A DNA stretch of 64,000 nucleotides from Terracidiphilus sp. (GTDB lineage Bacteria > Acidobacteriota > Terriglobia > Terriglobales > Acidobacteriaceae), in contig DATFSO010000150.1 in assembly GCA_035262585.1 (NCBI GenBank), positions 2,760 through 66,759 on the forward strand, in the 5' to 3' direction. Under the pieces are notes generated by a model, which worked only from the letters and a program-made list of their open reading frames with translations, was not told the origin of the DNA and searched no databases. Below are positions 23,351-30,000 of the stretch, one piece after another. Position numbers and translations under genes: made by a program. How positions within the stretch are numbered: position 1 is the stretch's first letter; every line of letters starts with the position of its first letter.

Positions 23351-23908
23351 TTATCTGGCTTTTTCCTCATGCATCCACTGCTGCGATTCCGCTTCCAGCG
23401 TTCGCAGTTCGTTGCGCAGGCGTTCGGCCAGGCGCGACGGAGTAACATGAGTGCTCACATGTAATGCTCCGAAGAAATATCGCGGCAACCGTGCCTCCGT
23501 CAACCATTGAGTTTGCGGAAAAAATGCAACCGTTACCAAAATGCAGATGGTGACAAAAACAAGGCCCTCAACGAACCCGAACACCCCGCCCGCCAGCCGG
23601 TCGAGGCAGCTCAGACCGACCTTCTCGAACACTTTGGCAAGCACAGCACCGGTAATCGCGGCGATCAGCATCACCAGAAGCGAAATCACCAGGAACGCGA
23701 TCGCGTTTGCCACCTCGACCGAATGCACCAGCGGTTTCAGTACAGCCGCAAACCGCCAGTAGTTCCATGACGCCAACGCCAGTCCTGCGATCAGGCCTGC
23801 GAGCGAAAAAGCCGATCGGAAGAAGCCCCGAATAAAGCCGCCAAGTACCGCCGCGGCGAGCATGGCCACGATAATCCAGTCGACAAGCGTCAGTCCCATG
23901 ACGTTCAT
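23351..23908 (-). CDS. cvpA: CvpA (colicin V production) family membrane protein
   Basis: DWIIV..GFIRGFFRS, LDRLAGGVFG; start overlaps the purC stop. Confidence 0.85.
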   Translation of the reverse strand: MNVMGLTLVDWIIVAMLAAAVLGGFIRGFFRSAFSLAGLIAGLALASWNYWRFAAVLKPLVHSVEVANAIAFLVISLLVMLIAAITGAVLAKVFEKVGLSCLDRLAGGVFGFVEGLVFVTICILVTVAFFPQTQWLTEARLPRYFFGALHVSTHVTPSRLAERLRNELRTLEAESQQWMHEEKAR

Positions 23909-24804
23909 TTCGTCAAGTCCAGATCACGGCCGGTCAACCGCCGGAACGCTTCAAGGTATTTCTGCAGTGTACGCTCCACAACGTCATTCGGAAGACTCGG
24001 CGCCGGAGCCTGCTTGTTCCAGTGAATGCTCTCCAGGTAATCTCGTACGAACTGCTTGTCGAAACTCGGCTGCGGGCCCCCCGGCCTCCATGCCTCTGCC
24101 TCCCAGAATCGCGAAGAGTCCGGCGTCAGCACTTCATCGGCCAGCACGATGCCATCCTGCGTCCTGCCGAATTCGAATTTCGTATCAGCCAGAATCAACC
24201 CCTTCGACTCCGCGTGCCTGCTCGCCCTTTCGTAGATCGCCAGCGTCAGCCTGCGAAGTTCATCTGCATCGTCCTCGCCGACCAGTCTCTCCACGGACTC
24301 GAACGGAATGTTCTCGTCATGTTTTCCGTCCTGGCTCTTTGTTGCCGGTGTAAACAGCGGCTCCGGCAACTGCGATCCATCCTGCAATCCGGCGGGCAGC
24401 AGGATTCCGCAGACTGTTCGGCTAGCCTGGTACTCCTTCCATCCCGATCCGGCAATGTATCCGCGCGCGACGCACTCCACAGGAAACATCTCTGCGCGCT
24501 TTACCAGCATCGATCGGCCCTCCAACTGGTCAGCATACTTCTGCAACGACTCCGGAAATTCGGCGACCTCGGTGGCGATCAGGTGATTGGGCACGATGCT
24601 CCGCATCATCTCGAACCAGAACAGCGAAATCTGCGTGAGAATCTTGCCCTTGCCCGGAATCCCTGTACCCAGCACGTGGTCAAACGCCGAAATGCGATCC
24701 GTCGCGACCATCAGCAGGGCGTCGCCAACTGCATACAAGTCGCGCACTTTGCCGCGGCCGATCAGAGGGGTCGCGCCCAAATCTGTCTTCAAAACGATTG
24801 TCAT
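23905..24804 (-). CDS. purC: SAICAR synthetase
   Basis: GKVRDLY, TDRISAFD, ILADTKFEFG, LADEVLTPDSSRFW. Confidence 0.96.
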   Translation of the reverse strand: MTIVLKTDLGATPLIGRGKVRDLYAVGDALLMVATDRISAFDHVLGTGIPGKGKILTQISLFWFEMMRSIVPNHLIATEVAEFPESLQKYADQLEGRSMLVKRAEMFPVECVARGYIAGSGWKEYQASRTVCGILLPAGLQDGSQLPEPLFTPATKSQDGKHDENIPFESVERLVGEDDADELRRLTLAIYERASRHAESKGLILADTKFEFGRTQDGIVLADEVLTPDSSRFWEAEAWRPGGPQPSFDKQFVRDYLESIHWNKQAPAPSLPNDVVERTLQKYLEAFRRLTGRDLDLTK

Positions 24805-24837
24805 GGGAAGACTTACCTCGGGTTTGTTGAATCTCCG

Positions 24838-24866
24838 ATTTTCTTGCCGGCGGCGCGCTTTGTCAA
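24838..24866 (-). promoter_or_regulatory. Putative purC promoter TTGACA-17-GAAAAT
   Basis: Perfect -35 with canonical spacing; the -10 lies 33 nt upstream of the start. Confidence 0.5.
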
Positions 24867-24935
24867 ACTTCCCGAGCCGCAAAATGACCATCAGGAAACC
24901 TAAGAGACGTTCATACCCCAAATTCCACAAAGACC

Positions 24936-24951
24936 TGTGACGGCTGTCACG
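24936..24951. promoter_or_regulatory. CRP/FNR-family-like site TGTGA-N6-TCACG
   Basis: 9/10 match to TGTGA-N6-TCACA. Confidence 0.35.
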
Positions 24952-24953
24952 GA

Positions 24954-25130
24954 GGCGGACTCCCAACTAAGCGAAACTCCATTTGTCACCAAGGTTCGGG
25001 AGTTCGTTAAGAAGCTTCCTTTGAGCCGGGTGGCACGAGGCAGCAGTGGAAAGGGGAAGCCGCGGCTAGCTTCGTTTCATAGGGATCGCCAGTAGCTGCG
25101 CACTACCGACCTCCAGTGCCGGCTACTGGC
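24954..25130 (+). ncRNA. Candidate structured small RNA (rod with large internal loop plus a 3' hairpin)
   Basis: Hand-folded closing stem, central bubble and apical stem. Several G-U pairs form only on the + strand. No credible ORF. Confidence 0.45.
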
Positions 25131-25164
25131 CCCCGCTCTTACTTCTTGTGATATTCAATACAAG

Positions 25165-25202
25165 CGCCTCCGAAGAGAAGACTGCCTTCGGAGGCGAATT
25201 TT
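25165..25202 (+). terminator. Intrinsic terminator-like hairpin
   Basis: Perfect 11-bp stem CGCCTCCGAAG/CTTCGGAGGCG followed by AATTTT. Confidence 0.6.
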
Positions 25203-25253
25203 CGTCTCGACACTTCCGCTTCGCCCCGCTTGAGCTTGTTGATCCTTGAACCT

Positions 25254-25288
25254 GGGGTGCCCCATGCATGACGAAGTCGTGGGTGGAA
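25254..25288. repeat. CCACCC..ATGGGGCACCC-type palindromic repeat
   Basis: Reverse complement ttccacccacgacttcgtcatgcatggggcacccc is related to 50498-50530 and 62624-62654. Confidence 0.6.
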
Positions 25289-25309
25289 GCAAGGAGCAGC
25301 CTCCTCCTG

Positions 25310-25642
25310 CTACCGTCCGGTCGCTGCCGCGGTTGCTTCGATCGTCGTCGCCAAATGCTTCGATTTCCGATAGACGTTCGCTACTGCCAGCGTCCACAAA
25401 GGCACGAAGTCCACTGCAGGCACAAGCTTGCCGAGAAACGACGGCAGAAACTCCCAGTGCCATCCGAGAAGATAGCTCAGCACGCCGGCAACAGCGAGAT
25501 CGAGGACGTCATCGGCGGGCGACGCGGCGCCTTCGATGAAGAGAGGAAAGACCGCGATCTGCAACAGGTCCGCGACGGCTGCTATCGCGAAAGCTGCTCT
25601 TATACGCGGCCCCGGAGATACGGTGAGGATATCTTTGGTCAA
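25310..25642 (-). CDS. Hypothetical membrane protein
   Basis: 110-aa hydrophobic ORF (WHWEFLPSFLGKLVP..DFVPLWTLAV) that reads as natural protein; start uncertain. Confidence 0.7.
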   Translation of the reverse strand: MTKDILTVSPGPRIRAAFAIAAVADLLQIAVFPLFIEGAASPADDVLDLAVAGVLSYLLGWHWEFLPSFLGKLVPAVDFVPLWTLAVANVYRKSKHLATTIEATAAATGR

Positions 25643-25808
25643 AGCAATTCTACCTGCGGACAGCGGACGCTGCAGGCGCTCCTGTTCCCATTATCGTCTA
25701 TGACGGTTCCCGAGGAAACCTACCCCCACAGGGGAACCGATCCGACAATTCTGTGCCACGCCGCCCCGGTCCCCCTAGGCTCTTCCCTCGTGACCGGAGT
25801 CACTAATC

Positions 25809-25865
25809 GCTATCTCGATCCGTCCAGAATATCTGTGGACGCGAAAAGCTTGCTCTTGAGATAGC
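25809..25865 (+). promoter_or_regulatory. Nested hairpin upstream of the small ORF
   Basis: GCTATCTC/GAGATAGC (8 bp) encloses CGTCCA/TGGACG (6 bp). Confidence 0.35.
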
Positions 25866-25918
25866 CAGGGCGCATTCACCCGGTAACCCAAAGCCCGCCG
25901 GAAGCCGAGGAGGAGGCC

Positions 25919-26089
25919 ATGATCGACCTGGTTGCGGTGCGCAAGGAGATCCCGGAGGGGCAAACATCGTCATTGTGGGAATCTCATCTGCATCCCTGAA
26001 GTCTGGTCAATCTTTTGCGCCGCGGCGAACCGGTCGAGGTGGTGTTGGCAAAATCCAAGCAGGGAACGGGCGTTCTGGGCGTAAATTGA
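25919..26089 (+). CDS. Small ORF: 26 aa ending Pro-UGA, extendable in frame to 56 aa if the UGA is read through
   Basis: GAGGAGGAGG RBS; MIDLVAVRKEIPEGQTSSLWESHLHP*(25997-25999)SLVNLLRRGEPVEVVLAKSKQGTGVLGVN*. Too short for the ORF track. Confidence 0.55.
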
Positions 26090-26251
26090 CGGAAGCTCAC
26101 CAAAGGGCGTAGAAGACGAAGCCGGCGTGAAATGGCGGCACGGACTGGCTGCGAAATTTCGGCTACAGACGTTGACGCTCGGCTGAGTTGAACTGAACTG
26201 GAAGCTGGGGTCCCCAGCGACGGGTTTTGGTCGCGTCGAAGGAGGTAACAT

Positions 26252-26734
26252 ATGGCACTCGCGAGTTTGAAGGATTGCCTGGATCGCGAAAACGTCAAGT
26301 ACGTGGTTATCACTCACTCACCCGCATACACCGCACAAGGCATCGCAGGACTTGCGCACATTCCCGGTCAGGAACTGGCGAAGACGGTGATCGTAAAGCT
26401 CGATGGGAGGTTGGCCATGGCTGTTCTTCCAGCGAAATATCACGTCGACCTCTTGCACCTGAAGGAGCGGGCAGGGGCCAGGGCTGCTGCGCTGGCGACA
26501 GAAGACGATTTTCAGGGCGTGTTTCCTGGATGCGAAACCGGCGCGATGCCTCCTTTTGGCAATCTCTTCGGGCTTTCCGTTTATGCCGATGTCAATCTCG
26601 AAAGGGATAGGGAGATTGCATTCAACGCCGGAACGCACCGCGAACTGATTCGCATGTCCTGGGAAGATTTCAAGAGGCTGGCCAATCCCAAGGTCATCAG
26701 TTTCGCCGCCGGCCGCTCGGCTGAAGCTGCTTAG
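26252..26734 (+). CDS. YbaK/EbsC/ProX-family aminoacyl-tRNA deacylase
   Basis: AGGAGGT RBS; LAKTVIV, GAMPPFG, FNAGTH. Confidence 0.9.
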   Translation: MALASLKDCLDRENVKYVVITHSPAYTAQGIAGLAHIPGQELAKTVIVKLDGRLAMAVLPAKYHVDLLHLKERAGARAAALATEDDFQGVFPGCETGAMPPFGNLFGLSVYADVNLERDREIAFNAGTHRELIRMSWEDFKRLANPKVISFAAGRSAEAA

Positions 26735-26789
26735 GCGGGAACGAGAAGAAGTGACCAAAGACTAGGGATCAGGACTCAGAGGGGGCATC

Positions 26790-26984
26790 GTGGAAGCAGA
26801 GACACAGGGCAAGCACGCACAGAAGATTCGAATTGTGCAGAACAGCACATTCATGGGCAGCGCCTGGTTCGCCGCCTGGCTCTTCACCATCGGCTTTCTG
26901 CACCTGACATTTTGGAAAGGCGTCTTTGCCCTTGTCATCTGGCCCTACTACCTCGGCCTCCACTTCAGTTCTGCGATACGTTAG
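26790..26984 (+). CDS. Small 64-aa membrane protein
   Basis: GAGGGGG RBS; aromatic-rich WFAAWLFTIGFLHLTFWKGVFALVIWPYYLG. Confidence 0.7.
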   Translation: MEAETQGKHAQKIRIVQNSTFMGSAWFAAWLFTIGFLHLTFWKGVFALVIWPYYLGLHFSSAIR

Positions 26985-27007
26985 ACGGCAAACCGGTGTT
27001 CGCGATG

Positions 27008-30000
27008 CTATGCCGTCGCCCGTTGTTGTTCGTGTCCGCCAAGCTTCACGCTGACGACCTTCGATACACCCGGCTCCTGCATCGTCACGCCGTAGATCAT
27101 GTCGGCGGCGTGCATCATTCGCTTCGAGTGCGTCACGATCAGAAACTGCGTTTCTGTGCTCAGGGTCCGCAGCAGATCGGCCAGGCGACCCACGTTTGTC
27201 TCGTCCAGCGCCGCATCCACTTCGTCGAGCACACAGAACGGACTCGGCTGGAACTGGAAGATGCCGACAAGCAGGGAAATAGCCGTCAGAGCCTTTTCTC
27301 CGCCCGAAAGCAGCAGCACGTTCTGTAATTTCTTGCCTGGAGGCGAGGCGACGATCTCCAGCCCACTCTCCGCCTGGTTCTCCGCATCGGTGAGCCGCAG
27401 AAACGCCTGCCCGCCGTGGAAGAGCCTCGTGAACACGCGCCCGAAGTTCTCGTTGATCCTCGTGAATGCCTCGTCGAACTTCTCGCGCGAAATCTGGTCG
27501 ATCTCCTTGATCGTCTCCTGGGTGTTTTCGATCGACTCGATCAGATCCTTGCGCTGCGTCTCGAGGAAGGCATGTCGCTCTGCCGTCTCCTTGTACTCGT
27601 CGAGAGCCATCATGTTCACGGGGCCCATCTGTTCGAGCTTCTGTTTCAAGGTTCGGCAGGTATCCTCTTCTGTCGCCAGCGGCTCATCGGCAATACGAAC
27701 AATCTCCTGGTCCGCACGCAGTAGCGAAGCCTCGACGTTTACCTCTGTCAGGCAGCTGCCTTCCAGGTGTTCCAGGTCCGACTTCAATTTGGCTGTCTGG
27801 CTCGCTCTGCCGCTGCGATTCTCGCGTAATTGATCCAGGGCTGCACGGGCCGTCTTCAGCTCCGTTTCCATTGTAGCCAGCTGATGACGAATCTCTTGTG
27901 CCTGCGCCGCGATCGTCTCGGCCTGCGCCAGTGCCTCGGTTCTCAATGCACTCAGCTGTTGCTCGCGCTGCGCCAGTTCCGCGGTTTCCTTGATGCGCTG
28001 CTCGCGCTCCGTCTCTGCCGATGCGCGCTGCTGCTCAATTGCCTGCACCCGCCTCTCCAGGTCGGCGTACAGCCGGTCGATGCGCTGGAAGGCTGCCTCA
28101 GCGCCGCGCCGCCGCTCTTCGAGGCCGGCAAGTTCGGCCGTCAGCTTTGCCGCCTCCTGCTGCAGCGTCTCACGCGCCTGGCGCATTGTCGCGAGCTGGC
28201 CCTGCTGTTCATCGACCGCGGCTTCGGCCGCCGCGTGCTCAGCTTCCAGGCGCACAGCCTCTTCGCGCTTCTGCTCGATGACCGAGCGCTTGGCTTCACG
28301 CGTTTCCTTGTTTCGCGCAGCCTGCGTCATCCACTCCTGCAGCCGCCGTTCGATGCGTTGCGCTTCGCTCTCCATCTGCCTAAGCGCCGCACCCTGGTTT
28401 GCCGCATCGCGCTCTGCCTGCCGGCGCTCTTCGCTGCGTGTCTCGAGCAACGCCGTCAGCTCCTCGATCTGCCGCGTTAGTGTAGCCGCTTCCAACTCGG
28501 CCTGGCCGAGATCGCGTTCGAATCCAGCCAGTCGCATCTCCGTCTCGCGCAGCTCGCGCTTCAGCGCCAGCGGACCGGCACTCGCAGGCTTGCCGCCCGT
28601 CACTGTCGCATTGTGGAAGCACTCGCCCTCCGGCGTCAGAAAGTACGCATGGGTATGCTCGTTCGCCATGGTCTGCGCCAGGGCTGCGGTCTCCACGAGA
28701 TATCCGTCACGCAATTTCGGCAGAATTGTCTCCAGCGAATGACCGAAGCCGTTCAGCAGCCGTACCTGTTCGCGCAGGGGAGTCACGCCGGGGGCGTCGA
28801 TCTTCTCGGTGTATCCGCTCGACCCGTGTCCGCCCCCATTTTCCGGATGAATCAGGAACGTCGCACGACCATCGACGCTTGTCTTGAGCACGCGCACGCC
28901 TTCTTCCGCGGCGTGCCAGCTCTTGACCACGACGTAATTCAACTCATCGCGCAGGAACTCATCGACCACGCCCTCGTGCTCGCCGCTTACCTCGATGAAA
29001 TCTGCAAGTGTGCCCACCGGGGTCGATCCGTTTTGCAGTGCTCCGGGCCTAAGCAGCTTCCGAACTGTTTCAGTAGAGTAACTGTGATCCCGAATCAGTG
29101 ACACGAGCGAGTCTCTCCGGCCCGTGGCTGTCGCTTTCTCACTGCGCAATTGGTTCGCCCGCGCCCGCACAGAGCCTTCTTCGGAACGGCGTGCCTGCAG
29201 CTGCGCGCGGAGCTCCACGATCTCTTGCTCCAGCCGCTTCAGCGTCTCTGCCGCGGACTCGAACCTCAACCGTGCCTGCCCGCTCTGCACGCCCAGGTTT
29301 TCCTGCTCGTTGCGAGCTTGGTTCATCTCAGCTTCAAGCCGGTCAGCCTCGCGCTCGAGTGCCGCAAGACTCTCTTCGGCCTGAGCTGTGCTGTTCCGCG
29401 CATTGCCCGCAAGCGTCAACAGGTGCATCGCGTGACGGCGATCCGCTTCCAGCCTGCGCTCGGCGTTGAAGACCTCATTCGCGGCAGCTCGCGCTTCGTG
29501 CTGACGTGCCTCCACCTTCTCGTGGAACGCCTTTGCTTCGCTCGCGGCGGTCTCCAGAAACGCCCTCTGCTGTTGTCGCTCTTCGGCAATCGTGCCCAAC
29601 TGCGTCCGTGTCTGCTCCAGCTCGCCGGTCGCAGCCGCAAGGCGTGCCTCGAGATCGCTTACACGCTCCGCATTGCTGCGCTGCCGCGCCGCCGCGCGTT
29701 CCAGCTCAACGGCTGCCGAGTTCGCGCGATTCTGCGCATCCTGCCCCTGGCGATCAAGCTCGTAGCCACGCTCAGTGAGAGCATGCTGGCTTGCCTCGGC
29801 TGTTTCGATCTCCGCCGCGCTCGCCGCAATCTGCTCGCTGAGGGCAGCGATCTCCTGTTCGAGCCGTGCCTGCTCGGCATCCATCAGGGCCATGCGGCTT
29901 GCCAGCACTATGCGCAACCGTCCGCGCAGATCATCCCGAACCTGCGCAAACCGTTCGGCCTTCGATGCCTGTCGCTTCAGGCTGTTCATCTGCCGCGTGA

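Follow-up and report, generated by a model that had tools for sequence, protein, structure and literature searches.

In TnaC-type leader peptides a final Pro-UGA terminates slowly, and in bacterial selenoprotein genes an in-frame UGA is recoded as selenocysteine with a SECIS element and SelB. The protein family that bears on the locus described here is PF04008, whose Pfam name, Adenosine_kin, comes from reports of adenosine binding or kinase activity, and whose cellular role is poorly defined. Solved structures of this family include ST1511 (2ekm), TTHA1091 (1vgg), PAE2307 (1wvq/2jb7) and PH1918 (2d16), all deposited in the PDB under hypothetical-protein titles; a literature search for PAE2307 gave a single hit, which was unrelated. 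An intact orthologue of the gene discussed below (P0002) matches these structures over its full length (E 1e-54 to 8e-39), with ST1511, TTHA1091 and PAE2307 at E 1e-54 to 2e-50.

The first-pass annotation of our window, the whole 64,000-nt stretch of Terracidiphilus sp. DNA analysed, described a small ORF with a strong ribosome-binding site that ends in Pro-UGA ahead of a tRNA-editing deacylase gene, and offered three readings: a leader peptide sensing translation fidelity, a selenoprotein or readthrough product, and a nonsense pseudogene. The signals themselves are present. The Shine-Dalgarno sequence GAGGAGGAGG precedes an ATG at 25919, the 26 codons encode MIDLVAVRKEIPEGQTSSLWESHLHP on inspection of the sequence, and behind the UGA at 25997-25999 a further 29 codons of the same frame are open before a closing TGA at 26087-26089. 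We conclude that this region is very probably a decaying, non-functional remnant of a 161-codon PF04008 gene (Table 1), an ordinary pseudogene of a kind already known.

Homology to an intact gene emerged when we searched the DNA of 40 relatives with positions 25700-26300. One match was informative, at 72% identity over window positions 26015-26167 in the same-genus genome G022, and no other copy of the 5' part of the query was found in these relatives. The G022 gene is intact, encodes 161 aa and scores 252 bits on PF04008 over its full length. In a tblastn search of the window with its product, the first 23 residues fell on the small ORF in frame 0 and residues 102-156 fell in another frame (E 7e-14). 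Six pieces of the ancestral gene could all be placed, with frame changes as the indels predict, and when joined they score 72 bits on PF04008 (E 6e-20). A six-frame search of the organism's own 4.26-Mb assembly, with a cut-off of 25 bits, gave a sole PF04008 match, at window positions 25992-26159 (31.6 bits). Pfam had given only a sub-threshold PF04008 hint for the 56-aa readthrough product (E 0.26), which became meaningful once the syntenic orthologue was found. Homology, synteny, lesions, the lack of another copy and the agreement of further assemblies are direct observations; we infer that the remnant has no function.

Table 1. Features of the remnant and its surroundings in window coordinates, with the basis of each assignment.
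Feature	Position	Strand	Basis or remark
Palindrome GTGACCGGAGTCAC, 14 nt	25790-25803	.	unique in own 4.26-Mb assembly
Nested hairpin, divergent intergenic region	25809-25865	+	fold z -2.87
Retained SD of the presumed dead gene, GAGGAGGAGG	25907-25916	+	sequence
Reported 26-codon ORF with TGA	25919-25999	+	codons 1-12 ancestral, 14-26 out of frame
PF04008 remnant, very probably a pseudogene, 257 nt	25919-26175	+	tblastn, piece coordinates, alignments to intact orthologues
Codons 1-12, frame 0, MIDLVAVRKEIP	25919-25954	+	
Lesion 1: 1-nt deletion in codon 13	about 25955-25957	+	alignment
Codons 14-21, frame 2, GANIVIVG	25957-25980	+	
Lesion 2: ~226-nt internal deletion, codons ~22-96	junction 25978-25982	+	alignment, length bookkeeping
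Codons 97-114, frame 1, NLIC/IPEVWSIFCAAAN	25980-26030	+	
Lesion 3: codon 101 lost			alignment
Lesion 4: 1-nt deletion in codon 114	about 26028-26030	+	alignment
Codons 115-132, frame 0, PVEVVLAKSKQGTGVLGV	26030-26083	+	
Lesion 5: 1-nt insertion after codon 132	about 26084	+	alignment
Codons 133-151, frame 1, IDGSSPKGVEDEAGVKWRH	26085-26141 (open stretch continues to 26144)	+	
Lesion 6: 1-nt insertion after codon 151	about 26142	+	alignment
Codons 152-161 and original stop, frame 2, DWLRNFGYRR-stop	26143-26175	+	
Palindromic repeat, one degenerate copy of a genus-wide ~42-nt element	26205-26238	+	matches in G007, G009, G015, G018, G020
YbaK/ProX-type aminoacyl-tRNA editing-domain gene, intact, 160 aa	26252-26734	+	PF04073, E 1e-23

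We mapped the lesions from MAFFT and pairwise alignments to five intact orthologues, and then two more, together with the exact location of each piece. The remnant spans 257 nt of an original 486, a total loss of 229 nt, and the length bookkeeping closes (486 - 1 - 226 - 3 - 1 + 1 + 1 = 257). Read along the remnant, the ancestral frames run 0, 2, 1, 0, 1, 2, so that a full-length product is impossible. Residues 14-26 of the small ORF (GQTSSLWESHLHP), terminal Pro included, are frameshift products, put out of frame by the 1-nt deletion in codon 13 and the large deletion. The TGA itself combines the T of CCT (Pro103) with the GA of GAA (Glu104), and the intact L019 orthologue, with CCTGAG at this site, carries the same off-frame TGA. 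Beyond it, 18 of the 29 codons are in the ancestral frame, and the natural-looking codons after the UGA arise mostly because the codon-114 deletion returned codons 115-132 to frame 0. The pseudogene reading had thus been right in kind and wrong in mechanism: it supposed a CGA- or TGG-to-TGA point change in a 56-codon gene, and the parent has 161 codons. We reject a point nonsense mutation, as the TGA is an off-frame triplet bared by the 1-nt and ~226-nt deletions.

To look for relaxed selection we compared the 85 surviving codons with L017 by codon position, and obtained a ratio of differences at positions 1 and 2 to those at position 3 of 0.59, like that of the ybaK-like gene; the remnant is too short for such a comparison, and GANIVIVG was aligned one codon out of register, which contributes spurious differences. 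Pairs of intact PF04008 genes give about 0.34; most of the divergence of the remnant is older than its decay. The remnant also keeps a very good Shine-Dalgarno sequence and start, and orthologues have GGAG-type Shine-Dalgarno sequences at equal distance from their start codons; this retention fits recent decay and is no proof of disuse.

Recoding of the UGA as selenocysteine, or its readthrough, would yield a 56-aa product, and the 29 codons open behind the TGA speak for this reading; that stretch is open because old codons 115-132 have returned to frame 0, and the product would fuse three different ancestral frames. It had been proposed that Cys or stop codons in homologues at codon 27 would be telling. 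Homologues have neither, as the site is not a codon in them: the triplet straddles their Pro103 and Glu104 codons. The weak stem-loop described after the UGA does not stand out either, since the fold of 25997-26050 (-16.1 kcal/mol) is no more stable than shuffled sequence (z -0.18, 82 of 200 shuffles equally good) and offers no SECIS-like stability. Our search of the genome for selABCD covered SelB and tRNA-Sec, and neither was found: the best matches to SelB are EF-Tu-like GTPase domains (192 bits against a TIGR00475 cut-off of 242), and tRNA-Sec is absent among the 32 tRNAs found by ARAGORN in an assembly that is 93% complete, an absence that is not absolute. We consider the selenoprotein and readthrough reading effectively refuted.

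The surroundings of the remnant in related genomes explain what has been lost. An intact 161-aa PF04008 gene lies directly 5' of the orthologous ybaK-like gene in four genomes of the same genus (G020, G022, G041 and G044). The gene order in G044, purC – PF04008 – ybaK-like – 61-aa membrane ORF – smc, is that of the window, with a live gene at the place of the remnant. The PF04008–ybaK-like pair occurs in nine of the 11 closest Acidobacteriaceae/Terracidiphilus loci (L015-L025) and in a tenth the ybaK-like match is some 2.3 kb downstream; across 69 more distant loci no ybaK-like match was seen. Within the genus, only seven of 37 genomes, the window's own counted, carry the ybaK-like gene. Upstream of it they have an intact PF04008 gene (four), none (two, G006 and G010) or the remnant (the window). 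G052 has PF04008 without the ybaK-like gene. The PF04008 gene would formerly have formed one two-gene unit with the downstream ybaK-like gene. As two genomes lack the partner and it is half-eroded here, against four with an intact copy, the ybaK-like gene does not depend on PF04008. Both genes are accessory, and the PF04008 partner is dispensable and in mid-loss in the window genome.

The same comparison bears on the proposal that the 26-codon ORF is a functional leader or arrest peptide, sensing prolyl-tRNA or termination and tuning the editing deacylase. Its Shine-Dalgarno sequence and ATG are still present, its Pro-UGA end is a slow-terminating context, and the editing-domain gene lies 252 nt downstream on the same strand. 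Against this, the last 13 residues of the peptide come from frameshift, the 176 nt past the stop are more decaying coding remnant and repeat element, and there is no sign of selection on the ORF. A comparable short ORF upstream of the ybaK-like gene was found in none of the relatives, which have the intact 161-aa gene or no gene there. A scan between 25999 and 26252 found no terminator-like site, and folds in this interval are no better than shuffles. We consider a leader or arrest peptide highly improbable.

The nested leader hairpin reported at 25809-25865 is real as a predicted fold (-22.4 kcal/mol, equalled by only two of 200 shuffles) and had no counterpart among related loci or at other sites of its own genome. 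The two hairpins said to adjoin the deacylase Shine-Dalgarno sequence are not above chance (z -0.41) and are not local regulatory design: the sequence at 26205-26238, which follows the old stop codon and precedes the ybaK Shine-Dalgarno sequence, is a copy of a palindromic repeat. An Rfam scan of 24900-27100 (E<=5) gave chance-level matches only (mir-449, Mcr7 and an 18-nt Glutamine-II fragment), with no riboswitch or leader family, and a promoter and terminator scan gave nothing on the + strand between 25200 and 26250. We regard as very improbable two further proposals, that the Shine-Dalgarno sequence, ATG and 26-codon frame have been co-opted as an upstream ORF helping the ybaK-like gene, for example by Rho protection or by keeping the message open, or that the lineage-specific pairing of PF04008 with the ybaK-like gene in Acidobacteriaceae stems from a functional tie of the two products, an adenosine-binding protein and one with an aminoacyl-tRNA editing domain.

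Reading the remnant as a genuine pseudogene requires that its lesions belong to the organism. The source assembly is of metagenome type and fragmented, in 173 contigs with 93% completeness, and short homopolymer runs adjoin all four single-base indels, as might be expected if the deletion and indels had been made in assembly and the organism's PF04008 gene were intact. Three assemblies, however, are identical base for base over window positions 24752-27098: the 71.9-kb window contig, a 57.9-kb ENA k141 contig (L097) and a Logan contig of SRR5215545 (L098), of which L097 and L098, found by a contig search with the ybaK-like protein, are under other accessions, possibly from related samples, and so may not be fully independent. 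From 26131 onwards a short contig (L099) confirms the 3' part, without gaps and with a single mismatch. The single-base indels are also concentrated in the remnant: its 257 nt contain four, and the neighbouring coding sequence (purC, the ybaK-like gene and smc, which encodes 1280 aa), about 5.3 kb in all, contains none and is free of frameshifts. A 226-nt internal loss is atypical for read error. The deletion junction gave no exact match when metagenome contigs were scanned for it. Given the 100% identity of the further assemblies and the intact flanking genes, we consider an assembly or sequencing artefact very unlikely.

The downstream gene had been called a YbaK/ProX deacylase. Its product does have the PF04073 editing domain (84 bits), and the narrower identity did not hold, as it scores 38.3 bits on the TIGR00011 equivalog against a cut-off of 153. 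With a score so far under this cut-off, “YbaK-like” is the safe name, and judged by its sequence the protein can be assigned only to the broader PF04073 editing-domain superfamily. It aligns to its orthologues without gaps over 160 of 160 residues, at 66-79% identity, and the gene has its own Shine-Dalgarno sequence (AGGAGG, 26240-26245). The ybaK-like gene is probably still served by a promoter upstream of the dead gene. Of the upstream intergenic region (25643-25918), only a ~40-nt conserved block has a homologue in related loci, found upstream of the G006 ybaK-like gene, where PF04008 is absent. Within this block lies the palindrome GTGACCGGAGTCAC, a candidate transcription-factor operator that may belong to the promoter of the (PF04008-)ybaK unit.

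Several further elements were observed in the neighbourhood. The ~42-nt palindromic repeat (CCGGGGYCCCCAGCGACGGGTCTTYGTCGCWGGGGTGGA) is scattered over several genomes of the genus, with occurrences in L008 (1463-1553), L007, L003 and L004. Of the nine copies in G015, three follow one another in tandem every 42 nt. An HExxH peptidase-like ORF of >614 aa in G020 contains 2.2 tandem copies in frame, which encode AGAPSDGSLSQGWK twice; this resembles the in-frame behaviour of Rickettsia palindromic elements. Downstream of the ybaK-like gene, a 64-aa two-helix membrane ORF (26790-26984, +) precedes smc; it is kept in G044 (61 aa) and has no family match in Pfam or NCBIfam.

On the other side of the remnant, a single-copy element of ~235 nt (24968-25205, +) lies between purC and an ORF at 25310-25642. 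Of 36 genomes of the same genus, 31 carry it, at 76-87% nucleotide identity; it was absent from 24 genomes representing other genera of the order, and it has no Rfam match. RNAalifold predicts three hairpins, invariant loops GGAAAGGGGAAG and ACCGACCUCCAG and an intrinsic terminator, with compensatory changes in eight of 58 pairs. The predicted fold is not that of a 6S-type rod. On these predictions the element has the look of a stand-alone small RNA of this Acidobacteriaceae genus that is as yet undescribed. The longest ORF of purC (23905-24966, -) starts at a TTG at 24966, and its G044 orthologue begins MTT/MTIVLKTDLG; the true purC start is probably near 24804, which would leave the small RNA candidate clear of the purC coding region. 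The ORF at 25310-25642 (-) encodes a hydrophobic protein of 110 aa, is called as a gene in an ENA assembly, has no Pfam or NCBIfam match and lies within a ~500-nt segment missing from the syntenic G044 locus. It could be an inserted gene for a small membrane protein, or spurious.

We suggest that the locus illustrates how gene decay can imitate regulation. Ribosomes loading at the old Shine-Dalgarno sequence and ATG would translate 12 ancestral codons and a stretch of frameshift junk before halting at the off-frame TGA; continued transcription of the region could yield a junk peptide of 26 residues. The Pro-UGA end, the open frame behind it and the strong ribosome-binding site would then be by-products of gene decay rather than parts of a recoding, arrest or attenuation system, and no mechanism beyond gene decay is needed. 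The value of the case is mainly negative, in that an attractive pattern of strong ribosome-binding site, Pro-UGA, open frame and editing gene is decay debris, and a single syntenic relative is enough, on comparison, to settle such calls. The case is a snapshot of accessory-gene loss inside one genus as well.

Set against described systems, the likeness to TnaC-type leaders and to selenocysteine recoding is superficial, and the defining features that we checked are missing. Like TnaC, the window has a short ORF with a good Shine-Dalgarno sequence, a Pro followed by UGA and another gene downstream; unlike TnaC, the ORF lacks conservation, the conserved Trp/Asp spacing and a downstream Rho or terminator architecture, and its sequence is demonstrable frameshift debris. 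With bacterial selenoprotein genes it shares an in-frame UGA and an open frame beyond, whereas a stable SECIS-like hairpin and Cys/Sec homologues, which would accompany such genes, are lacking, as are SelB and tRNA-Sec in the assembly. Within the PF04008 family, the pieces align to model positions 87-154, and the window copy, without ~47% of the gene, cannot encode the fold. The closest resemblance is to bacterial deletion and frameshift pseudogenes, which likewise have an intact syntenic homologue over their entire remaining length and several frame-breaking lesions. Retained translation signals and the absence of a second copy are also shared with ordinary bacterial pseudogenes, from which this one differs in a sole curiosity, its chance Pro-UGA end before a tRNA(Pro)-related editing-domain gene.
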